Below are positions 21,067 to 62,925 of a stretch of 64,000 nt of DNA, in pieces. Positions within the stretch are counted from its first letter, which is position 1; every line of letters begins with the position of its first letter. Source of the DNA: Eledone cirrhosa (taxonomy: Eukaryota); assembly GCA_964016885.1 (NCBI GenBank), contig OZ024745.1, positions 121,706,001 to 121,770,000 on the forward strand. The letters run 5' to 3'. The translations under genes were made by a program, and so were the position numbers. The notes beneath the pieces are model-generated. The model was given only the letters and a program-made list of their open reading frames with translations. It was not told the origin of the DNA and did not search any database.

Positions 21067-24000
21067 TAGAACTAGAGAAAAAATTCCAAACTTGGAAGCA
21101 GGACTAGAAAGAAAGGGTCTCAAAGTCAACCTGACAAAGACTAAGGTCCTTGTAAGTAGATGAGAAAACAGAACCCAGATCCCCTCAGGGAAATGGCCTT
21201 GTTCAGTATGTAGGAAAGGTGTAGGTAGGAACTCCATTCTCTGCTCCAAATGCAAACAATGGGTACACAAGACTGGGCTCTCAGGAAGCTTAACTAAGAA
21301 TGTAGGCTTCACATGCAGCAGCTGTGCTGGGACAGCAAGCAGCAAACAGCCACAGGAAACAAGTACTACCAATCTCTGGGAGGGCTCTGTAGAAACAGTA
21401 GACAGCTTCTGCTACCTAGGTGACCGAATTAGCAGCGGAGGTGGGTGTTCGGAAAGTACAATAACAAGAGTAAGAACGTGGTGGAAGAAGTTCAGGGAAC
21501 TACTGCCACTGCTAGCTGCAAAAGGCTTTTTCTTCAAAATGAAAGGCAGACTGTATGATGCGTGTATACGAACAGCAATGTTACATGGTAGTGAGACCTG
21601 GGCGCTGTCTGTAGAAGACTTGCATAGATTAGAAAGAAACGAAGCCTGCATGCTCCGATGGATGTGTAATAGTAATATACGCGAACGGCAAAGCATAAAC
21701 GAATTGAGAGAGAGACTGAGCATAAGAGGAATCAAATGCTGTGTGCAGGAGAGGCGGTTGTGTTGGTATGGACATGTAATGCGTATGAAGGATGACAGCT
21801 GCATAAAAAGGTGCAGAGCACTAGAAGTCGATGGAAACCGCGGAGTGGGGAGACCCAAGAAGACCTGGGATGAGGTTATAAAAGCCGACCTTACCCAATT
21901 ACACCTCTCAAAGGCGATGACACACAACTGTGACCTCTGGCGTCACACAGTAGTACAGAAGAAACAAGCCCCCACGGGTACAAGCCGAAGCTGAAGCATA
22001 TAGACAATATTCCCCCACACCCTCCCACTGCAAAATGGTCGTGGAGGTGCCACGGCAAAAAAGCACCCAGCCCACACTGTAAAGTGGACGTGTAGGCGCC
22101 ATGGAAAAAAGGCACTCAGCATTCACTGTAAATGAGGTTGGTGTTAGGAAAGGCATCCAGCTGTAGAAATCAAGCCAGAATCAGTTCCCGTATGAGCAAG
22201 GCATGGTCAGCCGACCGGCTACTGCCCACAACAGGACAACCCGTCTAACCCATGCTAGCGTGGAAGAACGGACGTAAAACGGTGATGGTGATATATATAC
22301 GAACACACACACGCGCGCATGTATACACACACATCCAATGGGAAGAAAATGAAAAAATATTTGTACTTACTCCAGATTCAACAAATTTTGACTTAGGTCT
22401 TCGTTCTGGAAGCTTTGGAGGATTGTTTTTTTGCTAAAAATACAAAATAAATATTTCTGAAAAGAGTCGAAAATGTTAACTGATCAATAAGATATGGTGG
22501 AAAATTCCTTTTGATCCACAACTATGACATCAATGTAGCATCTTCTGAGTTTATATAGTTGTATGCTAGCAGTATACAGTATACCCCTGGCATTTGCGGT
22601 CCTGACATTCGTGGAATTTTCCTTAGAACCTAAGTAATAATTGTTTATGGAAACCACCACATACTCGCAGAATGGTAAATATCTTCCGCAATTTATTTTA
22701 TGGCTTTTTTTGTGGCCATATATATATATTTTTAATGCTAAATTATTAATAACAATATACCATATTTGTTTCCCTATTAGATACCCCCTTTGCATATGAC
22801 ACACCTTTTTTTTTCATTATATTTTGATGTTTATAGGCATTTTTATGGACCATGCCCATTATTCACGGTTTTTCATTCTTCGCGGGTGCTCTAGGAATGT
22901 AATCCCTGTGAATACCGGTAGACAACTGTACATTGATTTATACACACAGTCTTGATATATACAAGACTGTGTATGTGGGGTGGAGGTATGTAAACATGTA
23001 AATATACCCTACAAAAAGAATCATAAAATGACTGAGAAAGTATGGAAAGGGGAAAGAGTCATCTTTCCACTAATCATATCAATATCTTTCAAATAAACTT
23101 GTGAGTATGGCATGGCTGAATGGTTAAGAAGTTCATTTCAGGGGTTTAATTGACAGTCGATTGACAAGATCCCAGATCTCATTTGCTTAACAAATGGGCT
23201 GGAGCTTGTCAAATCGGACCAAGGAAATGTTTCCATTGGTCTTTCCTATTGCTAATACTATCTGTTGGTCACAAATCCAGGCAGAAGGAGCAACGTGAAA
23301 TAAAGTGTCTTGCCTAAGGACATAATGCATTGCCCAGTCCAGGAATCAAAATCACAACCTCACAGTTGTGAATCCAATTCTCTAACCACTGAGTCACGTG
23401 CCTTCATGGGTTTAATCCCACTGCTTAATGTCTTGCATAAGTGTTATTTACCATAGCTTCGGGTGGATCTAAGCCCTGGGAGTGAATTTGAGTAAAGAGA
23501 AACTGTTTAGAAGCTCATCGGATGGACTCTGCTTATAATTGAAAGGGCCACCGTTGTCGCACTGAATCTCCCTGAGAATTACTTTATGGATACACGTGTC
23601 TGTGGAATGCTCAGCCTTTTGTATGTTAATGCCATGAGTAAGTTCTGTTGATCACATGACTGAAACACTCTTCAAAACTAATAGAGGTCCTTTCCATTTC
23701 AAATAAACTGAAGTCCAGCATTCAATTTCAATTCTAATTTCAAACCATCCTTCCGTTATGTCCGTTTTTTCATGTTTGCATGGGTTAGACAAATCTTTTC
23801 CAACACAACCTCCCTCCATTTACTGCATTCCTTAGTCATCTCCTTGGTCAGGTTCAGTGTTTTGAGACCCGTTCTTACCACCTCTTCCAAGATTTTCCTT
23901 AGTCCTCTACTGCAACTTCCTTCCTCTGGGAACGCTTGACACTTCTTCATCCAACAATCATCATTTATATGCCTCACGTTCTCCATACCAGCACAATCTT

Positions 24001-24997: not shown

Positions 24998-27900
24998 CGT
25001 GGAGGCGCCACGGAAAAAAAGCACCCAGCCCTCACTGTAAGTGAGGTTGGTGTTAGGAAGAGCATCCAGCTGTAGAAATCAAGCCAGAATCAGTTCCTGT
25101 ATGAGCAAGGCATGGTCAGCCGACCAGACACTGCCCACAACAGGACAACCCGTCTAACCCATGGTAGCGTGGAAGAATGGACGTAAAACGGTGATGATGA
25201 TCATGATGATATATATATATAATGTATTGTTATACTTTGGGGGGGGGGGGATCATGCTGCCAATAAAAACACATGCACATGTTGGTTTTCACTTCAATTT
25301 ATTATAAATTTATGGTTGGTTGGTTCAATAACCGGATTGTTGTTTATATATTGTCAAAGCTCTTTCTGGAAATTTATAATAAAGTGAAAACCAACAGGTG
25401 CGTGTGTTTTTATTGGCAGCATGACCCTCCCAAAGTATAACAATATTTGTTTCAACACACCTTTTCAGATAAGAAATCTTGCAAAACAAATTAAAAAAAT
25501 GAAGTGTGTGTGTGTGTGTATATGTATATATACATATATAATGGAAAAATTTGAACAGGGACAAAACGGAGAGGCAGTACAATAAATGTTTATTAATTTC
25601 ACGCTCAGGAGAGTGGGGGGTAGGTGGGGGACGACGTTTCGGGCATAAGCCCTTCTTCTGGTGAGAAGTGTGTGGGAACAGAGTTCAAAAGGTGTGTAGG
25701 GGAGTGGTGGAGAGACATATAGTGAAAGGAAACGGTGCGAATGAAAAATATATATACATATACATATATACAAGGTGGGTCAGAAAAGTTCCAGGACTGA
25801 TGTCACAAAAGATTTATTTCAAACCCAAACTTCACACTAAGAGTTTTCTCCTTCAAAGTAATCCCCCTTGTGAAGGTGTGTGGCTGAGTCGTGAAGGCGT
25901 GTGGCTGAGTCGTGAAGGCGTGTGGCTGAGTCATGAAGGTGTGTGGCTGAGTGGTTAGAGAATTGATCTCTCAATCGTGAGGTTGTGAGTTTGATACCCC
26001 GACCGGGCAATGCGTTGTGTCCTTGAGCAAAACACTTTATTTCACGTTGCTCGTTCTACCTGGAGTTGCGACCGATAGAAAGTATTAGCAATTGGAAAGA
26101 CTAATGGAAACATTGTTTCCTCGGTTCGATTTGACAAAAGTCGATCGACTGTCGATATATATGTGCGTATGTATGTATTTGTATGTATTTGTGAGTTAGT
26201 ATGTGAGAGCATAAGTGTACTTACTTTTATCAATTCCAAATAACCAACATAGTCATAAAGAATGTCATCACAGGTTGAACATTCAAAATCCTGCAATAAG
26301 AATTTTGTCTTTTATTAGTATTATATATATAGATATATAGCGTCCAAAATGTTAGGACCCTCTTCCTGCTATTTCAAGCGTTAAACTAATATATTACTTA
26401 CATATACTGTATCGATTGTGTTGTTATTTCTTTTTATCTTTTACACACACACACTCATATATATATATATATATATATATATGAGGGTGCTTCAAAAAGT
26501 TTGTGGAAAAAGGTCAGCTGGCAAAAATGGTTTAAGTTATGATGCTTATTTTTCAACGTATGCTCCATCTAGGGCAATGCATTTCTCTGCAAGCGTTGAT
26601 ACCAGCCTTTAAGTCCATCTCTGTAAAACTGAGGGCCATCTGATTTTAACCATGTCAAAGCAGCTTTTTTTACATCTTCAACTGATGGAAAATGGGTACC
26701 TTTCATTTATTTTGTTTCAGGTTTGGAAACAAAAAGAAGGCTAAATCAGGACTGTAAGGTGGATATCAGATGATTTCCCATTGAAATTTGTGTAACACAG
26801 TTCGTGCCTGCCGAGTGCCGTGAGTGGGCACATTGTTGTGGTGGAAGAGAATACACCAATGCAGCTTCCTCAGGCGTTTCCCCACAATTTTCAGGGCCAG
26901 TTTTCTCAAAACACCTTCATAATATGCAGCTGTAATTGTTCTCTTGCTCTCAAGGAAGTCGACCAGCAAAATCCCCTCTACATCCTAGAAGACAGTCGCC
27001 ATGACCTCTCTTGAACACTCTGATTTTGCCTTGTCTGGCCCACTTCCACCTTTGGGCAGCCACTGCTTCAATTGAGTTTCTACTGGCAGAGCCACGTTTC
27101 ATCCCCTGTAACAATTCTCTGCAGAAAAGCTTCAGTCTTCATCCCACTTGTTCAAAGTTTCCATCGAAAGATGTGCCTTTGTTTGCTGCTGATCTGGGTG
27201 CAACAGCTTTGGGACCCATCAAGCGGAAAGCTTGCTCAGCCCCAAACTCTCCATCAGAATTGTGTGTGCAGAACCCACAGAGATGTTGAGTTTGTCGACT
27301 ACTGATTCAGTGGTTATTCGCCTATTGTTTTCAATTAGGTTGTGAACAGCATCAATGTTTTCCACACAGACTGACGTGGATGACCTGCCACTGTGGGGAT
27401 AATCTTCAACCTCATCTCTTCCACTTCTAAAACGACATCCATTTGCAGGTTGTTGATTTTTTTGGGGGCATTGTCCCTATAAACTTGCTTCAGAGTGTCA
27501 ATTATTTGGCTGCTCTTCCACCCTAGTTGCACCATGAATTTGATGTTTGTCCTGGCTTCAATTTCGATGGAGGACATGTTGCTTGAGTGGGTGCTGACTT
27601 CCAACTGGCACCGCCGCATTGCAACATGCATTTAAGGGTTCATGTTAGAACATGTTATGACAGTTGGTACAAGAACGTACAGCTGCATTGAGTTCAAAAT
27701 ACCTGCATATGATTTTTAGCTATGTACTTTTTCCACAAACTTTTTGAAACCCACTTGATATATATATATATATTATATATATATATATATATCATCATTA
27801 TCACCATTGTTTAATGTATAGGTTAGACAGGTTTCTCTCATTTACAGGCAAGTTGGGTCGGGTGACCGTGTCTAGCACAGTGAGTCTTGTTACTCTGGAG

Positions 27901-30900
27901 TTTCACCTATTTATCACGGGTCATCAGACAATAACTATTCTTGTTTGATGATCCTGTAATAAACAGGCGAAACTCCAGAGTAACAAGACTCACTTTTTAG
28001 CCTTAATAAAAATTAATATTAAAACTCTACTTTGGTATTGAGTACTCCTTTCTCTCAGCTGTCAACCATATATGGGTATATATATGTGTATATACTGGTC
28101 AGGTCACCAGTTGGTGCTACTGGTAACATGTATCCCAGTACAACCTGTCTCATGGTCGGGTCGTTGGCGACTAAACTGACAAGGCCACCAAGGTTTCTTG
28201 GTGAGGAGGGTGACTTTGGACATCCTGCAGGACTAAAAAAAAACCCGTCAAAGGGTAAAGGAGCTCTTAAGAGTCAATGGCCATCCAAAATCACCGGGAG
28301 AGATGACCCCTTAGCCTTTGTCAAGGCAGAATTTTAGGAGAAGGAAAACTCTGATATAACACCTGCAACCCTGATGGTATCCAATGATGTTGACTTGTGC
28401 TTCTTTTTGGTAAATATCATCTTGGTTAAGAGAGTGGGACTGGCTTTGTGCAGTGCCTTTGCTCACTATAAAAGCTTCACGGCACAGGCATTGCTTTATA
28501 TCTGGAGATCTCTCTGCACTTGTCGTCACATGGTACCATGGGCCCAGCACTATGTGTCAATAATTGTCACAAGTGTAGTGTTTGTACCAGAGTTTTCAAG
28601 TCGCTGGCTGGACTAAGGTCACACTCGTTCAGCGCATCGGTAGGGGTTCTCCTACATGGATATAAAGTAGTGGCCGTACTCGAAAACGAGTTGGCAGCCA
28701 CCATATATATATATATATATATATATATATCAATATAATAAAGGGAGGAGTGCAGGACTGTCCTGAATATATTTTTTTATCTAGTAAGGATGTGTGTACA
28801 CACACACACACACACACATACACATCTGATGGCTGCATCTCGATTTTCAACAATTGTCATCTCTTGATCCCCTTCTCACATATGTGTGGCTCAAAAAAAG
28901 AGACTTTTTTGGCTATAGCCAGCCATGGTCATGCAACACCCGTGAAAGATGTTTAGATCAAGTGATTTCTGTGTTTGAAGCTTTTGTAGGTAAAGAAAGG
29001 CCTTGCACTCTCTGAACAACGATGACATGTATCCAATAAGAACAGGTCAACATCATAGGCTGCCATCGAGTCAGGTTTTACATCTGAGTTTTCCTTCTTT
29101 GAGAATGATGCCCTAATTAGAGCTAAGGGTCTCTCAATCCCGGGGTGCTAGCTGTACGTTCAGGCACCAAACTGAGTATTTTTATGTCCCCACACAATAT
29201 ATATATATATATATCAAGTAAGAATATTTTCGAAACAGCGAGTGGGTTTGAAATTATTAGAAATGTAAGCTATCGCCGTATTTTGACTAAAGAAATTAAA
29301 GAAATTATTTAGCCTGATAGTGGGGTTAACCCCACTATCTAATATATATATATATATATATGTAAATTTTGAGTATATGTTGGTTATTAGCGACACTTCA
29401 GTATGCAGATTGGAGCACTCGACGAAGTACGCAGGTTGGTTTGATTACTCCGGAGTAATATCTTATTCTATTATCTGTTTGGCACCCCCCACCACGTGAA
29501 AAGGTGGTAGGATTGATGCCAACCCACACACACTCATTCTTCTAAAGACAGCAGCAGTAGAACTAAGGCTGACCTGCCAGCTAACCCCCTAACACCAATA
29601 AACACAAGGTCAGCTGTACTTAACAAAAACAACCACAACAGATTGTCTTGCCTCAGAAAAAATGTCTATAGACTTTTGACTGAGGAATGTTCTCACAACT
29701 GACCAATGGGAGGAGAGAGTGTCCTATGATGCCGAAATTCGTTTGTTCGAATTCATATGATTCCAGTTCCTCAGAGAAATAACAACACAACCAGGAGCTG
29801 GACATATCGGAGTATTGACGGAGTAAAACACTTTAACAACATGTGTACCTGTCTCTACCACACCAATTTGGACTGCCTGAAGAGGTCACAGCCAATGATG
29901 GCTGTCACCGAAATATATATAGCAGTACATCTTTAATAAACGAAGCCAAATCTTAAATATTTGACTTAATTACTTTATTATATATATATATATATATACA
30001 TTTGAGCTCAGAAGAAAATTCTCTATTCTTCTTTGAGCTAATACTATTATTATTATTACAGTGAACTGCGGAATACTCTTAATTCTGATCTTTGTATATA
30101 TATACATATATATACACGTCTAACCTATGCTAGCATGGAAGAACGGACATAAAACGGTGATGATGATGACACATATATATATGAAGGCGCATGGCTTAGT
30201 GGTTAGAGCATTGGGCTTGCAATCGAAAGGTTGTGAGTTCAATTCTCGGACCAGGTGATGTGTTGTTTCACTTTATTTCACATTGCTCCATTTTACTCAG
30301 CTGTAGAAATGAGATGATAGGGACTGGGGTCCCTATCATTCCACTGCAAAGTGGTCGTCGAGGTGCCACGGCAAAAAAAAAAAAACACCCAGCCAACACT
30401 GTAAAGTGGATGTGTAGGCGCCACGGAAAAAAAAGCACCCAGCACTCACTGTAAATGAGGTTGGTGTTAGGAAGGGCATCCAGCTGTAGAAATCAAGCCA
30501 GAATCAGTTCCCGTATGATCAAGACAAGGTCAGCCGACCGGACACTGCCTACAACAGGACAACCCGTTTAACCCATGCTAGCGTGGAAGAACGGATGTAA
30601 AACGGTGATGATGATATACGCACACATATTTATATACTCACCCGATCACACGGTTTAGCTAGCAAATAATTCCAGTTGGAGATTTTATTCTTATGGTTTG
30701 GTTTATATAAGATGAAATGAAATAAAAAAAACAAAAAACAGAGTTAAGTTTGATTTGAAGTCATAGCAGTGCTAAAGATGATAGAGAAGGCTGGCATGAT
30801 GGATGAATGTAGAGGTATTTTTGAACAGAGCAGATTCACAGTGGTCTGAAGTGTGTGACACTTGTTAGAAATCAGGGATTCCCAAACTTATTTTGTCACA

Positions 30901-36100: not shown

Positions 36101-39100
36101 GGTCCAGTGACATTGTCTTAGAAAGGTGTAAGTGTGTAAGGTCGGAATTTATCAAATCGTCCCAGGTTTTTCTGGGTCTACCTACTCCGTAACTTCCATC
36201 AATTTTGATCGCCCTGCACTTTTTTATACAGCTGTCGTCTTTCATGCACATCACGTGACCGTACCAATGTAGTCTTCTCTCGAGTAAACAACATCTGATC
36301 CCTCTTATTCCTAATTTCTACCTTAGTTAATTTATGCTTTGCTGTTCACATATATTACTATTACACACCCAGCGCAGCATGCATGCTTCATTCCTCTCCA
36401 GTCTGCACAGATCCTCTGCACACAAGGCCCATGTCTCACTGCCATGTAACATAGCTGTTCGTATGCAGGCATCATACAGTCTGCCTTTCATTTTTAGGGA
36501 GAAATCTTTAGTGGCCAATAGTGGTATAAGCTCTCTGAATTTTTTCCACCCCGTTCTGACTCTGGCTACTGTACTTTCAGAGCACCCTCCATCACTGCTG
36601 ATTTTGTCACCCAGGTAACGGAAGGTGTCAACTATTTCTATAGAGCCATCTGGGCAATAGAAGGAGCTAGTTTCCTGTGGGCACTTGCTACTTATTGCAC
36701 CTGAGCCCCGGCCACATATAACATCTACGTTCTTAGATAGCTTACCTGTGATCCCACTACATCTTTTATGCACCCATACTTTGCATTTGGGACATAAAAT
36801 GGAATTTGTGCCTCCTCCTTTCCTACACATTGAGCATGGCCATTTCGCTGAGGGCTCCTGTGACCTATTTTCCTTCCTACATACTAGAACTTTAGTCTTA
36901 GACAAGTTAACTTTAAGGCCTTTTGATTCTAGGCCATGCTTCCATGTTTGGAATTTCTTCTTTAGTTCTGCCATCGATTCAGCTATGAGTGTTAGATCAT
37001 CTGCATAGAGAAGTTCCCATGGGCAGCCGGTTTTGAACTCCTCTGTTATAGCCTGAAGGGCAATAATAAATAGGAGGGGGCTAAGGAAAGAGTCCTGATG
37101 AACACCAACTTTTACGCTAAATTCTTCACTATATTAGTTGTTAATTCTAACCTTGCTGACTGTTTCTTTATACATGGCTTGTATAGCTCTCACAAACCAT
37201 TCATCAACCCCTAGTTTTCTAAGGGCCCACCAGATAATGGCACGGGGAACTCTGTCAAATGCTTTCTCCAAGTCAACAAAAGCTAAGTATAGGGGTTTAC
37301 TTTTAGCTAGGTACTTCTCCTGTAGTTGTCGTACAAGGAAAAGGGCGTCTGTGGTACTTTTACCTGACACAAACCCAAACTGCATTTCGTCTAGATCAAT
37401 TTGTTCTCTGATTAGTTGCTGACAGGTATAGTTGTATGGTTAAGAAATTTGCTGTACAACCACGTGGTTCAGATTTGATCCCTCCAAGTAGTACCTTGGG
37501 CAAATGTCTTGCTACTCTAGATTCAGCCTGACCAATGCTTCGTGGGTGAAGTTAGTAGACAGAAGTTGTATAAAAGTTCATTGTATGTATGTGTGTGTGT
37601 TTTTTTTTTGTTTAGTTTTGGTTTCAAATCATAATGATTTCAACATTTTAATCTTTTAAGCAGACAGTGGTTAATAAGGTTTATGAATAAACAATGAAAA
37701 AAACACTGTCCTACAGTCGTAGTAATTCATCAAATTGTTAGGTTTATTGATTGTATTTTTATTTCCAGGATAGCTTCTTCTGATTATGTTGTGAACACTT
37801 TTTTAAAAACGACAGCCACAAAACATTTTAAAGCTTCATTTCTCATTCTAAGTTTATATTTAAAAGGGATATTTTATCCCATTGTAATATGTAAACCAAA
37901 ACTAATAGAATAGATTAGTGTTTTGTTGAAAGTTACCACAATGTGAATTGGATGGTAAATGTTACAGGCCCTTATATTTCAGGATAAAATCCCTTTGGCA
38001 AAAGATTGATAGAAGAAATTAGTTCAAAGCTGTATATTTCTTATCACTCTTAAGCTGCCATTTTCTGAAATTTATTGATAATTTTATCCTGAAATATAAG
38101 GACCTATAAAGAACTGTAAGGTAACATCCCAACATTATTGTTATCATATTTTTAACATTTACTGTCCATTTCACATTGTGGTAACCTTCAAACAAAACAT
38201 TATTCTATACACTTTACAAGGCTCTCTTAATAGAATAAAATAAACTCCAAACATATTTTAAAATGTAACATTTTTCAAGAAGAAATTTCATGATAAAATT
38301 ACAGATTTACCTGCGACTTATAATGCCATGAAACCAGAGTGCAAAATCTCCTGTATTACTTTTCACTTCATCCACCTGAGTTTTGACAAACCAATCAACT
38401 GATTGCAAAGTGCGGTTTTTATGTTCACTTGATTCAAGCTCAGCTATTTCTTTAGCCTCATTTTCTGGCTGAAGATAAATAATTTAACTCTAAACATCCT
38501 GTAATAATTTTGCAGAAAATATCTAAAAACAGGTTTGTTAATTCAGATAGTTATAGTATCTTTGTTAGTGATCACACAGATTATTGGGAAAATTGCAGGA
38601 AAGACTAAGTTGAATTTTCCATATTTTGAAATTTCATAGAAGTAAGAAAGTTTAACCCTTTAGCATTTAAACCAGCCGCATTCGGCCAAAATTCTCTCAA
38701 CTATTTCCCTTCAAACTGACTGTAATTGGCCACTCATACTGATGTTAAGGTATTGTTCTTAAAATAAATATCAAAATCTCATAGAATCGATATTATGTAA
38801 GATAATTATGTGAGATAAAGCCTTTACTTTGAAAATAAGAGTAATGTAAATGTTATGTGTGATATTATGTGAGGTAAGCCTTTACCATGAAAATATAATA
38901 GTAAATATAGAGTAATGTAAATGGTAAAGGGTTAAAAACTAAAAGTATAAGAGAAGTCGAAAGTTAGGCATAATTCAATGTATTTAAATGGTATCTCTCT
39001 CTCTCTCGTGGAAGAAATTGGCTGTGTTCAGCCAATTAAAATGCCCAAGAAATGTTTTATGTCACTATAGCACCCATATGGCTCCTATGAGTTATTGGTC

Positions 39101-41588: not shown

Positions 41589-44500
41589 TTTAAATACCAC
41601 AGTATTTAAAACTTTCTCTAACTACCTCTATCACCGTATCTATCCATTTCTCAGCTAGTAAGATGCCTACACCTCCTACCCCAGTGTCATTTCCTATCCA
41701 GTAGAGTTTATATCTAAGTTGCTTGTCTGTAATTAGTCTCAGTGAGGCACCCCTCCATCTCACTTCTTGTACACAGCATACATCTACTCCTTTTCTCTCT
41801 AACAGTTCCACAATTTCACCTGATTTACTTTTCAGGGTATCAACATTGAGGGTGGCAGTCCTATTATCATTGTTTTACGTCCATTTTTCCACACTAGCAT
41901 GGGTTAGATGAGTTGTCCTGTTGTGGGCAATGCTAGGTCAGGTGATCATGTCTTGCTCATCCATATGTGGTTGACAGTTGAGAGAAAGGAGTACTCAATA
42001 CCGAAGTAGAGTTTTAATATGCACGATGCTGCATGGTAGTGAGACATGGGCAGCAACTGCAGAGGATATGCGAAGGCTAGAGAGAAATGCACCTTTTTAT
42101 ACAGCTTTTATCCTTCATACGCATCACATGTCCATACCAGCACAATCTCCTCTCCTGCACACTGCTTCTGATTCCTCTTATACTTAGTTTCTCTCTTAGT
42201 ACGTTTATGCTTTGCTGTTCACGTATATTACTATTACACATCCTTCGGAGCATGCACGCTTCATTCCTTTCCAATCTACGCAAGTCTTCTGTACACAGCA
42301 CCCAGGACTCGCTACCATGCAACATTGCTGTTCATATGACAGTCTGCCTGTCATTTTGAGGGACAAGCCTTTTGTAGCTAGCAGTGGCAGTAACTCCCTG
42401 AACTTCTTCTATCCCGTTCTTACAAAAATACACATGCACAGACATACATTCCTACTAACACACCCACACAGACATACATTCATACTAACACACACACACA
42501 CAGACACACATAACATTCACACAATTATTACATACACAGCGTTCTATGTATGAGTATATAAATATAAATGTGCAAACACACATACTCACACCCACACATA
42601 CACTCACACACACATATATACTAATAAACACACACAGACATCATTTACACAAACACACACACAGCGTCCCCCCTCCCCTTCCTTCCTTTTTACACACACA
42701 TACATTCACACAGGCAGCAGACGTAAAAAGACAGGAGTAGTATGAGGTAGTCAAACTACTCCTCTCTCTTTATGTGTTGTGACAGAATCGTAGAAATTTA
42801 TATATAGATTTTCTTTTTATAAAATGTTGATTAAAAAGATACATCATTACACTATTATATGAAATTTGTAGTGAGACATTAACAAACTTTGTTTTTTCTA
42901 CAAATTTCATACTTGACCTAATATATTGCTTCTTTATATAAAAATTGTCAAGAAATAATCTTACTTTTATCATATTTATTATACTTGTTGGTTGCTAATA
43001 TTTCCTCGTATACTCTATCACCTTCTGATTTAACTGATTCAGAAAATTTGTCCAGTTCCATTTGGTAACATCTCTTCTGTTCTTTGAGATTCATGTATTT
43101 CTTCCATGCCAGAAAGCCACGGACCACTATTCAAAAGATAATTGTTAAAATATAAACAGTAAATGAAAGTAAGAAAGAAAGAGCAGTTAGACTGAATAAA
43201 ATAAGACTGCACAGGGCAGACATGGCCTCCATAAGTCATAGTAAAGGCAATCTAGGAGAGCAGTCACTGTGAATAAAATCTGATATAGATCAGTGAGGAC
43301 CCTTAAGTCTGGTCAAACAATCTCTCCGGTATTTGTGGCATGAAGAATGCACCAATTCCACACTGTCAAATGCTTGGGGATAGGAAAGGTATCCAGCCAG
43401 AAAATTCTTGCTCCAAACTATGGCAAAAGCAACATATAAGTTTCACACTAGGACTAACACTTATTATGTTAGACAGATGGTTATGAATGTTAAACAAGAT
43501 AGACAGGTGGTTATGAATGTTAAACAAGATAGACAGGTGGTTATGAATGTTAAACAAGATAGACAGGTGGTTATGAATGTTAAACAAGATAGACAGGTGG
43601 TTATGAATGTTAAACAAGATAGACAGATGGTTATGAATGTTAAACAAGATAGACAGATGGTTATGAATGTTAAACAAGATAGACAGGTGGTTATGAATGT
43701 TAAACAAGATAGACAGGTGGTTATGAATGTTAAACAAGATAGACAGATGGTTATGAATGTTAAACAAGATAGACAGATGGTTATGAATGTTAAACAAGAT
43801 AGACAGATGGTTATGAATGTTAAATCCTTCTCTGGATAAGAATACACTACTCAACATGAGTTAGATATGAGTGACATCAGAATAAGCACAAAGCAAAACA
43901 AGAAAGACAGGAAAATCTGAAGGACCTCTCTGTTAAATATCATCATCATCATCATCATCGTTTAACGTCCATCTTCCACGCTTGCATGGGTTTGGACGGG
44001 AGTTTTCCCACTTGAGGCAAGATTGGTTGTCCTGCTCGTATAGGACTGTCTGGCGGGTTTTCTACAGCTGGATGCTCTTCCTAACACCAACCACGTTTAC
44101 AGTGTGGACTGGGAGGTTTGTACCATGTTACCTACACGGCCACATTACAGCGTGGACTGTGTGTTTTTTTGTTGTGACACCTACACGACCTCATTTGTTT
44201 CGGACTGGATGTTGTGGTACCAACATAACTTCACATTGAAGGGGGTGGTGTGGATGGGGTGGGGGTAGTGGGACAGGGGTGTATTTTTGTTAGAGGTGCC
44301 TACTGACTGTAGGTTTCGCTTTGTACTTAGGCAAGGCGGGTCTTCTGTATTACTGTATAGCGCCAAAGATCTCGGTCCAGTGACATTGTCTTGGAGAGGT
44401 GTAAGTGTGCGAGGTCGGAATTTATCAAGTCGTCCCAGGTTTTTCTGGGTCTGCCTATTTTTTATACAGCTGTCGTCTTTCATGCGCATCACGTGACCGT

Positions 44501-47500
44501 ACCAACGTAGTCTTCTCTCGAGTAAACAACATCTGATCCCTCTTATTCCTAATTTCTCCCTTAGTTCGTTTATGCTTTGCCGTTCACGTATATTACTATT
44601 ACACATCCAGCGGAGCATGCAAGCTTCGTTCCTCTCCAGTCTGTGTATATCCTCTGCACACAATGCCCAGGTCTCACGGCCATGTAACATTGCTGTTCGT
44701 ATGCAGGCATCATACAGCCTGCCTTTCATTTTTAGAGAGAACCCTTTAGCGGTCAATAGTGGTATAAGCTCTCTGAACTTTTTCCATTCCATTCTGACTC
44801 TAGCTACTGTACTTTCAGAACACCCTCCCCCACTGCTGATTTTGTCACCCAGGTAACGGAAGGTGTCCACTATTTCTATAGAACCATCTGTGCAATGGAA
44901 TGAGCTAGTATTCTGTGGGCACTTGCTGCTACTTATTGCACCAGAGCCACATATAAAATCTATATTCTTAGTTAGCTTACCTGTGATCCCGCTACATCTT
45001 TTATGCACCCATACTTTGCATTTGGGACATAAAATGGAGTTTCTGCCTACTCCTTTCCTACACACTGAGCATGGCCATTTTCCAGATGGGACCGGTGCCC
45101 TATTTTCCTTCCTACAAACTAGAACTTTAGTCTTAGACAAGTTAACTTTAAGGCCTTTTGATTCTAGGCCATGCTTCCATGTTTGGAATTTCTTCTCTAG
45201 TTCAGCCATTGATTCAGCTATGAGCGTTAGATCATCTGCATATAGGAGTTCCCATGGGCAGCCGGTCTTGAACTCATCTGTTATAGCCAGAAGGGCAATA
45301 ATAAATAGTAAGGGGCTAAGAACGGAGCCCTGATGAACACCAACTTTTACACTAAACTCTTCACTATATTCGTTGTTAATTCTAACCTTGCTGACTGTTT
45401 CTTTATACATGGCTTGTATAGCTCTCACAAGCTATTCATCAACCCCTAGTTTTCTAAGAGCCCACCAGATAATGGAGCGGGGGACTCTGTCAAAGGCTTT
45501 CTCCAAGTCAACAAAAGCTACAAACTAGAAACTAGAACTTTAGTCTTCCAAACATGGAAGCATGGCCTAGAATCAAAAGGCCTTAAAGTTAACTTGTCTA
45601 AATATATGTTCCAAAAAGCCTTACGTGATGTATATGATGAAAGGATAGATGAACGAGATACATATGACACAGAGGGCAATTGGAAGTTCCTATGTGACAA
45701 CCTTTTATAGGCTATTGACAAAACTTGCAGCTGGAGTAAAGTATTGTTCAAATGGAGGGTCACTTGCTGGTGAAACAGCACAGTGGATAGAGCCATTAAG
45801 TCCAAGAGATGTGTGGAAACTTTGGTAAAATGGGGGTAGCTAAAAGAGAAACTAGATGACAGGTATATATAGCATACAAAGACACTAAAAGCAGGAGGTC
45901 TGCCAATGGCCTGTGATATGAGGGTCATAAACATGAGGTGTCTCACATAGCAAAGCAGTATGCCATTGTGAATCAGGATGCTGGGGAAAAAATATGTTCG
46001 AAATGACACTCATGCATTTGACATCACTAATGCTCATAAGAAAGAGGCCTGGAAATGTTAGTATGAGAAGTTGATAAATGTGGAGAATAAGTGGGAGGGA
46101 GGCCAGCAATTGAAACTGAGTCTTATAGGGTCAAGGAAACAATGAAGGAGCTGAAAAGTGGTAAAGCTGCTGGACTATCAGAGATAGTTGCTAAGATGCT
46201 GAAGTAGGAGTTGAACTAGTAAGCTGGAAAGTGAATCAGGTAATACAGGATGGACTCATATCTAATGATTGGTATAGCAGTATACTCATCAATTGTTAAA
46301 AAGAAAAAGGTAAGACTTTAGAAAGAAGCAACTGCAAATGAATAAAATGAATGGACCAAGTTATGGAAGTGACAGAGAGTTCTAGCACAACTAATCACGG
46401 AAGGAGTCATACTAGATGAAATGCAGTTTGGTTTTTTGACAAGGAGTAGTACTAAAGATGCCTTCTTAGACAACTACAAGAGAAGTTACTAGCTAAATAA
46501 TTTAAGCCTCCATATCTAGCATTTGTTGATCTAGAGAAGTCCTTTGACAGAGTACGACAATATGCCATCTGGTGGTCTTTAAAAATCTAGATGTAAAAGA
46601 ATGGCTTGTGAGAGTAGTGCAAGTCATATTTGGATGAGTTGTAAGTAAAGTGAGAATAAGAAATAAGTTTAGTGAGGAAGTACAGATAGCATCAATGATG
46701 GAAAGAGCAATGAGAACATAGTTTCCTTGGTTCAATCTCACAAGTGGTTCCTTTTTGTTATGTAATGTTTTTGTATTAGAATTCTGAAACTGTTGGACAT
46801 TAATCCATTGATAAGTTACCTCGTTGCATGTGGATTGCAGCTGCAATTACAATACTCATTTTATCATCTAGCTGTTTAATATGTGAATATTTGAGAAACA
46901 CTCGAGTTTTCCTGCAAATATAATATAGAACAATTGAGATGTTAAGATTCTGCTTATATATTCAATATTTTACATTCATTTCAAAGAATTTAATCTCAGA
47001 ATTCTTACCATTGATATTAACAAGTTTCCTTATCATTGTTGCTATTTTCATCATCATCATTGTATATATTGTATTAACAACCCTGTTGGTGTACATGATG
47101 ATCAAACACCTTCTCAATATGATCATAAATAAATAATATAATATATATCATCATCATCATCGTTCAGTGTCTATTTTCTATGCTAGCATGGATTAGACAG
47201 GTTGTCCCATTTGAAGCAAGTCAGGTTTGGTGACCGTGCCTTACTCATACAGAACTGTTTCTAGCTTGGTTGCTATGGCTGGATAGCCTTCCTAACGCCA
47301 ACCACTTTAACAGTGTAGACTGGGCACTTTTTGTCATGACACCTACATGACCACTTTACAGTGTGGACTGGAGATTGGGGTGAGGTGGGGGTAAGGAGGT
47401 GTATGAAAATGGGGGGAGTAGGGGTTAAGGGGTACATACTAGATGTATGCTTCAATCTGTGTGTATTGGAAGGAGAGTCTTCTGTATTACTGCATAATGC

Positions 47501-53500: not shown

Positions 53501-56500
53501 TGGCTGTAGTAAAGCCCTAGCCAGACAGAGAGTAACCTGGTGGAGAAACATCACAGTAGATAGAACCATTAAAGTTAAGAGACAGGCATGGAAAGACTGG
53601 AAAAATGGGGGTAGCAGAAACCGGTACCAGGTGGCTAAGAGAGAAGCTAGTTGACAGATATACACAGCTTGGAGAAAGGAAGAAAAAGAAAGTTTGCCAA
53701 TGTCCTGAGACATGAGGATCAGAGATGTGAAGTGTTTCACATTGCAAGGTAGTGTGTTAGAAATGACACTGGTGTATTTAACACCACTGATGCTCAAAAG
53801 AAAGAGGCCTGGAAATGTTACTATGAGAGATTGATGAATGCAGAGAATGAATGGGAGGAAGAGAAACTACCCTCAACTTACCCAACAGAAGGACCAACTA
53901 TTGAAGTTGGCAGTTATAGGGTCAAAGAAGTAATTAAAGAGATGAAGAATGGTAAAGCCATAGGACCATCAGAGATAGTTGCTGAGATGCTAAAAACATC
54001 ATAAGTAGGAGTTGAACTAGTAACCTGCATAGTCAATCAGGTAATACAGGACAGAGTGAAACTCAATGACTGGCACAGCAGTACAATCATAAATTGCTAC
54101 AAGGTTAAAGATGATATGACAGAAAGAATTATAGCACAACTAATTAGGGAAATCAATTCAAGAGGAGTATCCCATATTATGTAAAAGAGTTTTAGCAATT
54201 TTATTACAATGTTCAACTTCTTATATATGTGAACTAGGCTTCTCAACATTAAACATCAAAAACAAGAAGCATGAGAGATTACGTACAACGGAAGAAGAAA
54301 TGAGGGTGTGTCTGTCTCATATTCGACCAAACATTGAGGAAATTATGAATAAAAGCCAGGCACAAATTTCTCACTAAAGAAGCCAGCTATTTGACTGATG
54401 AAATTCGAAACACTGCAATAAAGTAAGTTCATAGCTGTGTTTTTCTTTATTTAGTTTAAGTCATTCTATGTCTATGACTTGTCTGTGTCTACAGTTGTAT
54501 GCTGTCTATGACTAGTCTGTGTCTACAGCTGTATGCTGTCTATGACTAGTCTGTGTCTACAGTTGTATGCCGTCTATGACTAGTCTGTGTCTACAGCTGT
54601 ATGCCGTCTATGACTAGCCTGTGTCTACAGTTGTATGCCGTCTATGACTAGTCTGTGTCTACAGTTGTATACCGTCTATGACTAGTCTGTGTCTACAGTT
54701 GTATGCCATCTATGACTAGCCTGTGTCTACAGTTGTATGCCATCTATGACTAGTCAATGTCTACAGCTGTATGCCATCTATGACTAGTCTGTGTCTACAG
54801 TTGTATGCCGTCTATGACTAGTCTGTGTCTACAGTTGTATACCATCTATGACTAGTCTGTGTCTACAGTTGTATGCCGTCTATGACTAGTCTGTGTCTAC
54901 AGTTGTATGCCGTCTATGACTAGTCTGTGTCTACAGTTGTATGCCATCTATGACTAGCCTGTGTCTACAGTTGTATGCCGTCTATGACTAGTCTGTGTCT
55001 CCAGCTGTATGCTGTCTATGGCTAGTCTGTGTCTACAGTTGTATGCTGTCTATGACTAGTCTGTGTCTACAGTTGTATGCCATCTATGACTAGTCTGTGT
55101 CTACAGCTGTATGCTGTCTATGACTAGTCTGTGTCTACAGTTGTATGCCATCTATGACTAGTCTGTGTCTCCAGCTGTATGCCATCTATGACTAGTCTGT
55201 GTCTACAGTTGTATGCCGTCTATGACTAGCCTGTGTCTACAGTTGTATACCGTATATGACTAGTCTGTGTCTACAGTTGTATGCTGTCTATGACTAGTCT
55301 GTGTCTCCAGCTGTATGCCATCTATGACTAGTCTGTGTCTACAGTTGTATGCCGTCTATGACTAGTCTGTGTCTCCAGCTGTATGCCATCTATGACTAGT
55401 CTGTGTCTACAGTTGTATGCCGTCTATGACTAGTCTGTGTCTCCAGCTGTATGCCATCTATGACTAGTCTGTGTCTACAGTTGTATGCCATCTATGACTA
55501 GTCTGTGTCTACAGTTGTATGCCGTCTATGACTAGTCTGTGTCTACAGTTGTATGCCGTCTATGACTAGTCTGTGTCTACAGTTGTATACCGTCTATGAC
55601 TAGTCTGTGTCTACAGTTGTATGCCGTCTATGACTAGTCTGTGTCTATGGTTGTATGCCATCTATGACTAGTCTGTGTCTACAGTTGTATGCCGTCTATG
55701 ACTAGTCTGTGTCTCCAGTTGTATGCCATCTATGACTAGCCTGTGTCTACAGTTGTATGCCGTCTATGACTAGTCTGTGTCTCCAGCTGTATGCCATCTA
55801 TGACTAGTCTGTGTCTACAGTTGTATGCCATCTATGACTAGTCTGTGTCTCCAGCTGTATGCCATCTATGACTAGTCTGTGTCTCCAGCTGTATGCCATC
55901 TATGACTAGTCTGTGTCTCCAGCTGTATGCCATCTATGACTAGTCTGTGTCTCCAGCTGTATGCCATCTATGACTAGTCTGTGTCTACAGTTGTATGCCA
56001 TCTATGACTAGTCTGTGTCTCCAGCTGTATGCCATCTATGACTAGTCTGTGTCTACAGTTGTATGCTGTCTATGACTAGTCTGTGTCTCCAGCTGTATGC
56101 CATCTATGACTAGTCTGTGTCTACAGTTGTATGCTGTCTATGACTAGTCTGTGTCTACAGTTGTATGCCATCTATGACTAGTCTGTGTCTCCAGCTGTAT
56201 GCTGTCTATGACTAGTCTGTGTCTACAGTTGTATGCCATCTATGACTAGTCTGTGTCTACAGTTGTATGCCATCTATGACTAGTCTGTGTCTACAGTTGT
56301 ATGCCATCTATGACTAGTCTGTGTCTACAGTTGTATGCCGTCTATGACTAGCCTGTGTCTACAGTTGTATGCTGTCTATGACTAGTCTGTGTCTATAGTT
56401 GTATGCCATCTATGACTAGTCTGTGTCTCCAGCTGTATGCCATCTATGACTAGTCTGTGTCTACAGTTGTATGCCATCTATGACTAGTCTGTGTCTACAG

Positions 56501-59500
56501 TTGTATGCCATCTATGACTAGTCTGTGTCTACAGTTGTATGCCGTCTATGACTAGCCTGTGTCTACAGTTGTATGCTGTCTATGACTAGTCTGTGTCTAT
56601 AGTTGTATGCCATCTATGACTAGTCTGTGTCTCCAGCTGTATGCCATCTATGACTAGTCTGTGTCTACAGTTGTATGCCATCTATGACTAGTCTGTGTCT
56701 CCAGCTGTATGCCATCTATGACTAGTCTGTGTCTACAGTTGTATGCCATCTATGACTAGTCTGTGTCTCCAGCTGTATGCCATCTATGACTAGTCTCTGT
56801 CTCCAGCTGTATGCCATCTATGACTAGTCTGTGTCTCCAGCTGTATGCCATCTATGACTAGTCTGTGTCTCCAGCTGTATGCCATCTATGACTAGTCTGT
56901 GTCTCCAGCTGTATGCCATCTATGACTAGTCTGTGTCTCCAGCTTTATGCTGTCTATGATTTGCCATGTTTTTATTTTGTAAAATTCAAATATTTTTCAT
57001 ATATATTTAGCCAGGTGTGCTGCTATTTTTCATGTGTTCCAAGGTGTGCCGTTGGTCAAAAAAGGACGAGAACCACTGAGCTAGACTAAGGATAGGATGC
57101 AAGACATTTAGAGAGCTACTCCCACTGTTGACTACAAAAGATTTCTCCCTACATACAAAAGGAAGGCTGTATGACACCTGTATGGAAAATGTGATGCTGC
57201 ATGGTAGTGAAACATGGGTAGTGACTATTTTAAACTGGATAGAAACAGTTATCATTAGCGTCAGACGCCATGCTTTGAAGCATAGAGTTATAGCCCTTTG
57301 CGTTATGAGTTCAAATCCGCTGAGGTTAACTTTGCCTTTCATCTTTACGGGGTCAATAAAATAAAGTACCAGTAATGCACTGGGGTAATTGATGGCCTTG
57401 TGCCAAAAGTAGAAACAATTATTATCATCATCCTTTTATCCTCACTTTTTCCATGCTTGCATGGTTGGAAGGGTCTTTTCCAGCATAGCTTCTCTCTACT
57501 CATTGTGTTCCTTTGTCATCTCCTCTGTGAGCTTCAATGATTTGAGATCAGCTCTCATCACCTCTGCCCGAGTCTTCCTTGGTTTTTGTTGTAGAGGAAA
57601 AAACCCTGAACACCCCTGTGTAACTAAAAGTGGACTAGGCAAAAAGTCTATAAATAAGAACTGAAGTGAACTGTGTGTACGGAGTCTCATTGTAATCTCT
57701 CGGTAGTTCAGAATTACGCCTGGTGAATACCTTGAGTTTTTTTACTGATATACAAAACAGGGGTTTCACACCATTATAATAGTCTTCCTCAACTGCAGCC
57801 TCCTTCCACCAGCATCATATTCATCACATGTCTATACCAGTGCAGTCTTCATTCTTACACACTATATCTGATTCCTTTTGTACTCACTTTATCAGGTTGT
57901 CGACATCTCTTCTTCTCCTTTTCATCCTCCTCCTCATCATCATCATTGTCATTGCTGCACTGCCACAGCCTTACATAAACAGGGACAAGATAAGAACTGT
58001 TGATCTTCCAGCTGATAGACCAATACCCTATCAGCTCAGTCAGTTGTGACTCACCATAACCCTTTAGCATTTAAACTGGCCGTATCTGGCCATAATTCTC
58101 TCACGTCTTTCTGTTCAAACCGGCCGTAACTTGCTACTCATACTGACATTAAGATATTGTTCTCAAAACAAATAACATCAAAATCTCATAGATTTGATAT
58201 TATATGAGATAAAGCCTTTACCTCAAAAATACAATAATATATATAGAGTAATGTAAATGCTAAAGGGTTAAACAATATGCAAGATAAAAAAAAAGTAGTC
58301 TTACCTTAAATTGGGCACCAACGGTTAGTTTCCGCACTTTATCCATATAGTGAGTCTCCTAGAAATGTTAGAAGTATTACATAAATATCACACAATTTAT
58401 GATTATATCAGAATTAAATTTAAAGTAATTTCTAAATATGACTCAGGATTTAAACTTTATATAAATATATTGGCGTAGCTTGGGGATCAGAGAGTCACTC
58501 CAGGTAGAACTGCTACTTCTCTGACTTGAGAGATCTCAGCACCGATACTATGGGCATATGGTTAGAATGTCTCAGGAAAGAATCACTGGACAGATTTTAC
58601 GGGCAAAACCAACTGGTAGGAGACCTAAGGGTAGACCCCGAGCAAGATGGTTGGATAACATCCATGAGCTTGGCTGGTCTGGAGCAAAAACCACAGTTTA
58701 TCAGCTAGCTTGGACTCAACAATCTCCTTGTATTTCTTTGCCAGACATTTAGCATTGACTTTACTGGGGAGGCTTAACAAGGCGATTTCTCTGGAATTGG
58801 AACAATCTCTCTTGTCTCACTTTTTGAAAATTGGGATTATCACTCCTGATAGCCATTGCTTAGGTGCCTTTCCAGAGAATACCTTCTCTATTTAAGGATT
58901 TTAACATCTTGGGCTGGATTTCATCTTACCCAGTGACCTTGCCACATTTGAGCTTTTTAATTGCTCTTGTGACCCCAGCCTCTGAGAGATTAGTCACCAC
59001 TTCCAGATGCACCTTGTGTATATCAGAAGATGCTGTTGTGACCTTGTTTAGGAGATCAGCAAAGTATTCTCTTCACCTTGTGAGGATGCACCTCTGTGAA
59101 GAGAGGAGAACCCCAGACATGTTCTTGATAGGTGTGGAGAAGGGCTTCTTATCACAAAGTTGGCGGATGGTCTGCCAGAACACTTTACTTGCTGATCTGA
59201 AGTCAGCTTAACCACAAATTCCTCCCGTGTCTTAACTTTGGACACCTCTACTGTCTCTGCTGCAATTCTTTGTGCCTGCTTGTAGCACAAGTGCAAGGGG
59301 GGGGGGGGGGGACGACACTTATTTCCAAGCCAAGCTTTGTAAGCCTTTTTCTTTGCTTGGATGGCAACAAAGCCTCTTTCACCCACAGCATTTATTAGCT
59401 GAAGCAGAAACTGCTGAGCTAAACAATCTCCACACTGTCACAACATCCTCAGTTTGCTCAGGGAGTTCTCTGAATTTAGATGCAATAGTATCTGCATACA

Positions 59501-59972: not shown

Positions 59973-60206
59973 CTTGAAAGGATATAACAATAAAAAGTTA
60001 TGTGGAAATATTCAACAATTATCTCTGCTTTACTTGGCTCAATTTAGTTAACTGTGTAATTCTCAAATGAATTTGTCTTCGTGCTAACATAAAAAATAAT
60101 TATTATTATAGCTAGTAATATATGCTTACGCTGTATTTGACTAAATAAATTAGTCTATTAGTTGGGATTTGAAAAAACCCTCTGAATGGAAAAAAGGATG
60201 AGTATT

Positions 60207-60275
60207 GATGTACAAGGGACACAACCCCCATCTTTGGTTTGCCGGACCAATGTGTTACCATTACACCAATACACC
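60207..60275 (-). pseudogene. tRNA-like sequence (SINE head or tRNA pseudogene)
   Basis: GGTGTATTGGTGTAATGGTAACACATTGGTCCGGCAAACCAAAG folds into D and anticodon arms; T loop is degenerate. Confidence 0.4.
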
Positions 60276-60368: not shown

Positions 60369-61235
60369 AAGATACAAAGCAGGCTTTGTTTTCATTTGTA
60401 GAAGCTGTTCCCAAGTGTCAACTAGAAACTCAAGAGACAGCAAGATAATGTGTTAAGATAATACACAAGTTCCATTTGTATGAGTGTGTGTATATATTTG
60501 AGTGCATGAAGATCTGTATGAATAATTTTTATTTGGGTATTTTTAAAATTCAAAATTCCATATGTATGTACATAAACATATTAATATTATAGATAATACA
60601 GGTACCTAAAAACAGTTTTTTTATTAATGCATTTTTGCTTTTTTTCAAGATGTCTAAGATTTCAGCTGGTTGTGTGTCTCTGTTCTTTTCTAGCCAGTTA
60701 TTAGTATTGTAAGTGACCTGTAATAAAATGAAATAATGAAATATGGTGAATTATATAAAAGTTTATGAAATAATTTTACAATTATTTTGTTGTTTAGAGA
60801 TAAAATTATTTCTTTCCTTGAAGATAAAATTATTTTATACTTAAAATATTATAATTCTATTTTCCTATGGTAATAAATTTAGATTCTTTTGAGTTGTTCA
60901 TCACGACTGTAGTATGGAGAAGACTATTCTTTTGTGAGAAAAAGGAAAAAATATTATAAGCCATTGGCTAATATGTTTTGTTTTTTTTCTTACCACTTAT
61001 TTCATTTTTCAATGCTTTAAAAGTCTATATTTTGATTGCTCCATTAGAATCCTCTTCATAAAGTGGGGAAAAAGTAATAAATTGCTGAACATGAATAGTC
61101 ATTTGAAAATCATAGATAGTCATATTTATTTTATTTCATATTAGTATTAGTGCTCCAACATAGTGTTTTATATATATATATATCTGATACCATCAACACC
61201 ATAAACACAGAGCTGGAATATATAACAACTGACTA

Positions 61236-61291
61236 ACTGCCTGATGAGGTCATAGCCATTCAATGGCTATCATCGAAATATATATAGCAGT
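61236..61291 (+). ncRNA. Minimal type I hammerhead ribozyme, same family as 29872
   Basis: ACUGC-CUGAUGA-GGUcAUAGCCAU uca AUGGCUAUcAUC-GAAA-UAUAUA-UA^GCAGU. Confidence 0.85.
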
Positions 61292-61391
61292 AAATAAAGG
61301 ATTATGAGACCATGCAATTGACTTATGTTTCGTCACTATATATATATATATAAATTACACAATTATCAAAGTTATGTTCAAATCATTTTAT

Positions 61392-61438
61392 TGCTGACAA
61401 TCGTTTCTTCCAAACTTTCGTTTGGAGTCATCGGAGCA
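61392..61438 (-). ncRNA. Hammerhead motif with U4C core variant, in the loop of a roughly 47-bp inverted repeat
   Basis: UGCU-CCGAUGA-cUCCAAAC gaaa GUUUGGAa-GAAA-C gauu G UC^AGCA. Confidence 0.65.
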
Positions 61439-61633
61439 TTAGCAATAAAATGATTTGAACATAACTTTGATAATTGTGTAATTTATATTCCTGCTCCGTA
61501 AAACACCTGATGTTCTTACATTGAGCTATTTTTCTTACTGGTAATAAGGTAGTAATAAATTACTGACCTTTCCTGTTTATAGTTGTTTATACTATATACA
61601 TAACTATAAATAGTATCATTATTATATATATAA

Positions 61634-61866: not shown

Positions 61867-62925
61867 TACGTGTTGTAAATCGAATAATATTACAAGATGT
61901 TTATGAAAAACATTTGACGGCCTTTTGCTATGAACTTTTAAGGTTGTAATCACCATCAAACATCCTTAGTCTCAATAAAAACAAGGGGGAAGTAACCAAT
62001 AACATTGTTTCTCTCTTGTTGGTGGTTGTCAAGGCTACATACCCACCTAGTTACCAGAAGCTAGAATATTATAGATTTCTCACTTATATATATAAAGGCG
62101 TGTGGCTGAGGGGTTAGAGAATTGGATTCACAATCTTGAGGTTGTGAGTTCGATTTCCGGACCAGGCGATCCTTGAGCAAGAGACTTAATTTCATATTCC
62201 TCCTTCTACCTGGATTTGCAACTGATAGATAGTATTAGCAATTGGAAAGACCAATGAAAACATTGTTTTCTGAGTTTGATTTGATGAGCTTCACCCTATT
62301 CGTTAAGCGAATGAGGTCTGGGATCATGTCAATCGACTGTCGAATGTTGGTATATGAGCTGACGAAGCTCATTTGCATACAGAGTGGCAGCCAGCCCAGC
62401 TTTAATTAACAATTAGTATTGACGCTCCAACAAAACATTATGTATCATCATCATTCATCATTTCATTTTACGTCCGCTTTTTCCCTGCTTGCAAGGGTGG
62501 GACGGGAACTGATTCTGGCTTGATTTCTACAGCTGGATGCCCTTCCTAACACCAACCTCATTTACAGTGAGTGCTGGGTGCTTTTTTGCCGTGGCACCTC
62601 CACGACCACTTTGCAGTGGAATGATAGGGACCCCAGTCCCTATCATCTCATTTCTACAGCTGAGTAAACTGGAGCAATGTGAAATAAAGTCTCTTGCTCA
62701 AGGAAACAACACATTACCCGGTCTGAGAATTGAACTCACAACCTTTCGATTGCAAGGCCAATGCTCTAACCACTAAGCCATGTGCCTCCATTGTATATAT
62801 ATATGTATAGTATATTTGGTAATATACTGTATGTTTAATTAAAAACATTTTGAAGACCTTCCGCTATTATTTTAAAGTAGTGACTATGTCACTTACTTCT
62901 TTTTTCAGCAAAGGAAGGGAGAGAA

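Follow-up and report, generated by a model that had tools for sequence, protein, structure and literature searches.

The window analysed here is a 64,000-nucleotide stretch of the Eledone cirrhosa genome (assembly GCA_964016885.1, contig OZ024745.1, positions 121,706,001 to 121,770,000 of the forward strand), in which a 157-nt element lies on the plus strand at 61183..61339 between a 15-nt (TA)n run (61169..61183), representing the target microsatellite, and a second run, (TA)8 (61337..61352). The limits of the element are 61183-61336, plus a TAT (61337-39) that it shares with the right run. T61183 is common to the left run and the element, constituting a 1-nt microhomology, while the TAT on the right is common to that run and the element's internal continuation TATTATAAC, constituting a 3-nt microhomology at the inferred priming site. 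The 3' end of the copy is GTCAC/TAT (the slash marking the junction), the main 3' end of its family, hereinafter family A. Upstream of this end, the plus strand carries a box of the GAGCTGG-CATATC type (61210..61221) that is common to family A and its relative, family B (see below), is mutated in the window copy and might be a candidate downstream promoter element; an AATAAA (61293..61298) 38 nt before the 3' end, with family B having one at a similar distance; and TTGACTTA (61318..61325), common to both families just before the main 3' end. At six positions the copy departs from the base that most sampled copies have; one of these is a C/T polymorphic site and none is inside the hammerhead. 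An earlier note on this DNA had described an element of about 155 bp bounded by (TA)n, with AATAAA just downstream of a hammerhead and a shared sequence near its 3' end, all of which agree with the above positions; it left the parent clade unnamed. We conclude that the element is almost certainly a short 3'/pLTR piece of a Penelope-like element (PLE) of the Hydra clade inserted in a (TA)n repeat, in a window without any ORF of family A or B. Right after its TA run there is a perfect 48-bp inverted repeat (61348-61395 / 61441-61488), part of another high-copy repeat, which may be MITE-like or a fold-back.

Read directly from the letters, the hammerhead occupies 61236..61291 on the plus strand, with a 5-bp stem I (ACTGC at 61236-40 pairing with GCAGT at 61287-91), the core CTGATGA (CUGAUGA in RNA) at 61241-47, a long 27-nt stem II with a C.C mismatch (61248-74), GAAA at 61275-78 and a palindromic stem III, ATATATAT at 61278-85, in which (AU)4 gives 2 bp and a 4-nt loop. 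A61286 is unpaired and the predicted cut would fall directly 3' of it. The element thus displays the core CUGANGA/GAAA/UH with three helices that characterizes type I hammerheads. The earlier note had called this hammerhead intact, with a CUGAUGA core, a predicted cut after 61286 and the same stems I and III as at 29872; the reading bears this out, "intact" being understood of the sequence, and both stems match those at 29872-29926 exactly. Scanned on both strands with a descriptor of the motif, the window gives exactly two hits, at 29877 and 61241, while 100 shuffles of it gave 0.02 hits on average and never more than 1. Folding 65 nt reproduces stems I and II in this arrangement (z -2.4), but over the full 150 nt the predicted fold is not more stable than that of shuffled sequence (z -0.29), and an Rfam scan with E up to 1 reported neither hammerhead of the window. 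Closing stem III in the monomer costs 2.7 kcal/mol, and the instability of this palindromic stem leads us to predict that just the dimer, in tandem RNA, would be active. Family B preserves each of the 17 base pairs of family A, one of them by a compensatory change and another despite a one-sided one, a conservation that is descriptive and carries no statistical weight because just two sequences are compared. The core is present in 60 of the 78 sampled copies spanning it, and mismatch rates of 2.9% versus 3.7% give no clear signal of selection on it among copies.

Metazoan type I hammerheads (Cervera and de la Pena 2014, PMC4209133; bioRxiv 10.64898/2026.07.22.740005) resemble that of family A, in the portions of these sources available to us, in having a short palindromic helix III implying activity as dimers, a long helix II and a 5-bp helix I, and in being mostly single dispersed motifs from truncated PLEs. 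In contrast to the metazoan PLE and retrozyme hammerheads in the accessible text of these sources, the helix III palindrome of family A, (AU)4, is the target repeat. This palindrome (61278-85) has the sequence of the target microsatellite and is unchanged between families A and B; one might speculate that read-through RNA with (UA)n could pair with it and block folding. A non-LTR retrozyme, with two or more tandem units each bearing a hammerhead, was rejected: the element is a single copy between TA runs, and not being a tandem array it is no retrozyme by the definition in the consulted part of bioRxiv 10.64898/2026.07.22.740005.

A search of the 3.0 Gb genome with a 159-bp query returned 527 candidates, and the 39 non-self ones among the 40 scored are 96-97% identical to it. 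The 26-nt pattern of the 3' end has 2,964 exact matches genome-wide and the 3' half of the hammerhead, counted over families A and B, has 7,469; the additional genomic copies on which the earlier note had made its reading depend therefore run into the thousands. Most of 19 long loci (L058-L076) join an ORF to the family A 3' end, and in five of them (L064, L067, L070, L072, L074) an upstream pLTR, the tail (see below) and the start of the ORF are present. The upstream pLTR runs through TATTATAAC into the body, with the ATG about 145 nt further on in the four measurable loci, and four full-length loci measure about 3.95-3.99 kb from this junction to the 3' end, of which the ORF takes up about 880 codons and the 3' UTR about 1.2 kb. 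The ORF is single, with an RT followed by a C-terminal GIY-YIG, both of which are held in natural open stretches of 704 and 730 aa. The latter (L070) is the longest natural frame listed, and none of the matches listed for the 19 long loci has a fully intact ORF.

The motifs of this ORF, namely RMRWR, ADKTN, YRDD, CNCRDPSLC, VVYRC..YIGST and CNLC..E..N..CRH, place family A in the Hydra clade. The DKG to DKT change is seen as LVHADKTNN in L069 and L070, the CxCX5C linker as CNCRDPSLC, and the CxxC and CxH around the conserved E and N as CNLC-LSE...LLN...CRH. RMRWR, aligned by eye to the RWK of homologues, is a conservative variant, and no GxKF was seen. Between VVY and YIG, where canonical PLEs have the CCHH, there is no CxxC, and we take the CCHH to be absent. 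The canonical hammerhead in the pLTR is a further feature of the Hydra clade, and the pLTR formed by a partial tandem, the inverted ends and the optional tail are features of PLEs in general. As defined in the consulted sections of Craig et al. 2021 (PMC8557442), the Hydra clade of C-terminal EN+ PLEs, which includes Hydra-1_Obim of Octopus bimaculoides, agrees with family A in the order RT then GIY-YIG, in DKT, the CxCX5C linker and the CxxC and CxH around E and N, in (TA)n insertion and in a canonical type I hammerhead near the 3' end. The same sections differ from family A in listing families of less than about 3 kb ("generally shorter than 3 kb" being a tendency and no strict criterion) as against about 4.0 kb, RWK as against RWR and a PLE tail of 30-40 nt as against 90 nt; the ORF length with two low-complexity insertions and the long 3' UTR further set family A apart from the clade as described there. 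Since the hammerhead sequence that PMC8557442 lists for Hydra-1_Obim differs, family A is distinct from it as a family. Family A is a new family of a clade already known, and there is nothing unusual in the stub as such. A Naiad PLE, with an N-terminal endonuclease and no canonical hammerhead, was rejected, as the endonuclease here is C-terminal and the hammerhead canonical.

This clade assignment is one by motifs and domain matches. The ORF has 82 homologues, the best named one being from Argonauta hians (46%); among 50 aligned members, Pfam finds RVT_1 in 1/50 and GIY-YIG in 2/50, and GIY-YIG clusters of the Atlas score 0.94-0.96. The ORF pieces of family A itself have Pfam matches at chance level only (Adeno_E3 with E 0.21, Clenterotox with E 0.034) and none in a further Pfam search, and comparison of the ORF to the PDB by sequence and by profile yielded nothing meaningful. 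The ORF of L070 has two Pro/Thr/Arg/His-rich, low-complexity insertions (alignment columns ~500-630 and ~700-765), which are in frame in many copies and are absent or much shorter in homologues.

The second hammerhead of the window (29872-29926, core CUGAAGA, predicted cut after 29921) belongs to a family B stub on the plus strand at 29459..29979, adjoined on the minus strand by an inverted 90-nt "tail" (29370..29459), which is the usual inverted-end arrangement of PLEs. Natural ORF pieces of families A and B are about 63-75% identical for most pieces, with the DNA about 71-74% identical over the ORF. Hence, judging by these sequences, we regard the 29872 element as a sister family of family A; the relationship proposed in the earlier note stands, while the rank of subfamily given to it there does not. 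At one further locus (L109/L173, 49.76 Mb on contig C1 of genome G000), copies of family A and family B lie tail to tail about 15 bp apart in one (TA)n run.

Ends were tabulated in a sample of 92 copies, being those that come first among the 2,964 places; they lie on one contig (C1), and each was selected by an exact 26-mer. The 3' end continues into TATATA in 80 of the 92, in line with the (TA)n insertion of the Hydra clade, into degenerate TA/CA repeats in six and into the tail in six. A poly(A) tail was seen at 0/92 of these 3' ends despite the AATAAA; hence, the element is not a LINE-type poly(A) retrocopy. The tail leads to a second 3' end 90 nt beyond GTCAC/TA: across all loci collected, 12 copies end in the tail, and in nine of them the end is at +90/91, where there is once more a TA. 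The motif GT(T/C)GA(G/C)(T/C)GCT occurs twice in both families, once after each 3' end (in the body after the pLTR junction; L072, L192); the hairpins predicted at it are modest and vary with the folded window. The two 3' ends have a counterpart in PAc, the Poseidon element of Anolis carolinensis (Frangieh et al. 2024, PMC11167929), for which the part of that study available to us describes two internal RT starts that define a tail. PAc is further alike in its AT-rich targets and in having uncut RNA as its main template, but it is of a different clade and its hammerhead overlaps the start of the ORF, while in family A some 200 nt separate the hammerhead from the ATG downstream of it.

The 5' ends of the same 92 copies are far from evenly spread. 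By distance from the 3' end, six fall at 0-52 nt, four at 53-62, four at 63-100, none at 101-152, 10 at 153-169, 25 at 170-172, six at 173-300, 17 at 301-600, 11 at 601-1000 and nine beyond 1000 nt, most of the last extending past the fetched DNA. The peak is centered on the A of TC/ATATG, 171 nt from the 3' end, hereinafter the hotspot. An accumulation of ends where the hammerhead would cut (at 53 nt) was considered and rejected, with 4/92 ends at 53-62. The window copy begins at +15 of the inferred transcript, which puts its end 14 nt within the hotspot boundary, and belongs to the 153-169 class, whose end density is about 10 times that of 173-300; its membership is a statistical assignment. 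The earlier note's 5'-truncated retrocopy thus survives in that the copy was retrotransposed, lacks its 5' part and has the common 3' end, while its truncation proves far from random, 35/92 copies ending 153-172 nt from the 3' end.

The simplest account of such ends, and that of the earlier note, is ordinary 5' truncation: the RT would fall off a full-length RNA early, and the cluster would arise through annealing of the ATAT of CATATG to (TA)n. Consistent with it, 43/92 copies end scattered beyond 172 nt, long internal TA runs further upstream also draw ends (6/17 at 725-772), and 18 of the 20 ends at exactly 171 have T at the junction and are joined in phase to TA, where the ATAT microhomology hides the exact end. 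However, TA microhomologies that are as long or longer and are passed by more copies take far fewer ends per copy at risk: the hotspot takes 25/68, as against 4/86 at the 8-nt TA palindrome (Fisher p 5e-7), 0/78 at the ATAT at 122 (p 3e-10) and 1/32 at 355-366. In another sample, one of 18 family A loci (L281) is truncated at the control ATAT 122. Microhomology with (TA)n helps the hotspot and does not account for it. Family B, moreover, uses the same site at a different distance: its stub in the window has the hotspot homologue TC/ATATG at 29755, and 10/30 of its copies end at 220-227 nt, at the homologous TC/ATATG. From CATATG to the CATATC of the common box is 49 nt in both families. These points, together with the junction base discussed next, make ordinary truncation an unlikely explanation of the cluster.

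The template base before the hotspot A is C. Genome-wide, 1,920 matches have a pyrimidine at this place (counted by eye in the first 100, 67 C and 33 T) and 158 a purine (in the first 100, likewise by eye, 79 G and 21 A). All 30 of 30 inspected purine loci are junctions. Ordinary truncation would have to accommodate about 158 junctions at the hotspot base that lack TA microhomology and mostly show G. When the 25 G cases among the inspected loci were sorted by eye, four proved to be templated by the inverted arm, one to lie in a GA repeat and eight to be equally readable as an ATATG duplication or degenerate repeat, which leaves 12 that none of these readings explains. At a control site, by comparison, the 88 non-C matches comprise 58 T, 16 A and 14 G, and 12/12 inspected are point changes inside continuing copies; the ratio of G to A differs between hotspot and control (79:21 versus 14:16; Fisher p 0.001). 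The window copy carries no such G because it starts 14 nt inside the hotspot. In family B, the first 100 junction bases are 38 G, 13 A and 49 T, with 5/10 inspected G junctions templated by the inverted arm, on account of which this replicate backs the precise end more than a cap. Untemplated 5' G in L1 and SVA has been read as copying of the m7G cap in the portion of PMC4859970 at hand, and these elements resemble family A in having an extra G at a fixed 5' end. In L1 the G marks full-length copies, as opposed to the 171-nt stubs of family A, where it suggests that the RNA was primed close to its 5' end.

The fixed site and its G might also reflect pausing of the RT at the CATATG palindrome, or nicking there by the endonuclease that the element encodes, the G then being added by terminal-transferase activity. 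CATATG is indeed palindromic and conserved, many inverted junctions lie at it, and PAc nicks its own pLTR in vitro (in the available part of PMC11167929). Yet G is not enriched before other junctions (6/60), few ends fall at the (TA)4 palindrome, which mimics the target more closely, and the minimum-energy fold of the last 330 nt has no obvious barrier at the hotspot base, though this is one fold and a weak test. We accordingly consider a pause or nick very unlikely.

The 5' ends are thus non-random, which seems new, and to judge from the sequences the shared end looks like a capped transcription start. In the literature searched, which took in few subscription papers, we found no report of a cap-type G or a hotspot at PLE 5' ends, and the part of PMC11167929 available to us reports neither a 5'-end hotspot nor a cap-derived G for PAc. 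We consider it likely that the stub arose when the RT copied the 5' leader of an element RNA, capped and uncut, almost to its first base. Under this reading, Pol II would transcribe a tandem element from the hotspot A (+1), a base of the upstream pLTR that is followed by the pLTR/body junction after 171 nt and by the ATG of the ORF after about 312 nt. The GIY-YIG domain would nick (TA)n, and the RT would begin internally on the RNA, either at the TA of the junction or at +90, and run off at the cap, because only 171 nt lie upstream on such an RNA, sometimes copying the cap as an extra G. The cDNA end would then be joined to the TA run, often via the ATAT microhomology and sometimes after trimming, as in the window copy with its presumed loss of 14 nt. 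The hammerhead would be a passenger of the pLTR and the stubs would have come from uncut RNA; the G-bearing stubs span the hammerhead cut site, implying that their template was uncut, in agreement with what the accessible text reports for PAc. Long copies would need tandem read-through or a circular template. The start resembles that of Penelope of Drosophila virilis (Schostak et al. 2008, PMC2377424), where, in the consulted part, a TATA-less internal promoter starts the transcript within the upstream pLTR, an arrangement we posit for family A; the DPE and 5' UTR intron of Penelope were not found in family A, which has one GT donor-like site only. The hotspot region itself lacks both a TATA box at -30 and a DPE consensus at +28 to +32. 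The match to an Inr at the hotspot is weak, taking the consensus to be BBCABW.

The same start site could serve a different source RNA, if the stubs are self-propagating, non-autonomous elements comparable to SINEs or retrozymes: RNA from an internal promoter would run from +1 into the flanking (TA)n and be primed through its (UA)n tail by the parent's protein. Such stubs would have the same 5' end and extra G, most stubs do end in (TA)n without the tail, and the common box lies downstream of +1 within the stub. This alternative shares its reading of the start site with copying of the capped leader, and the source RNA alone differs. Against it, no allele over about 140 nt separates the 35 short from the 43 long copies (lowest p 0.08) and divergence is alike in the two (3.3% versus 2.9%); no stub tandem arrays are present in the loci inspected; and some hotspot-ended copies (L123, L146, L225) carry the tail, which requires an RNA running into the element body. 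Hence, we hold self-propagation to be improbable. A separate short subfamily was likewise rejected, there being no diagnostic alleles.

Extending the capped-leader reading beyond the window copy, we lean towards the view that about one third of these Hydra-clade insertions are run-off copies of a capped, uncut 5' leader, as the pattern of ends suggests. If true, the genome would hold a base-exact in vivo record of PLE transcription start and internal priming, and the abundance of solo pLTR stubs would be explained along with a route for rebuilding the upstream pLTR. For Penelope, the consulted part of PMC2377424 sees no obvious mechanism of pLTR regeneration other than tandem formation. The matter bears on how PLEs prime, on why they leave many solo pLTR pieces and on the role of their hammerhead, with internal priming resting on one in vitro study; were the shared 5' end the cap site, it would lend genomic support to internal priming on uncut RNA, and PLE promoters could be mapped simply, with nothing but assemblies.

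Beyond these elements, the window has tRNA-like matches at 60206-60275 (-), 30192-30249 (+) and 62723-62780 (-), which are probably the heads of tRNA-derived SINEs. Open frames at 6145-8004 (-), 5144-6086 (+), 21164-21994 (+), 36327-37133 (-) and 44181-45431 (-) look to us, by eye, like LTR-retrotransposon pol, a Pif1-type helicase (Helitron-like) and non-LTR RT fragments. A long hairpin with arms of about 60 bp at 25253-25424, with sub-threshold hits to microRNA families, is probably a fold-back element, and 54471-56959 is a tandem array of 73 copies of a 34-bp unit with 93% matches.
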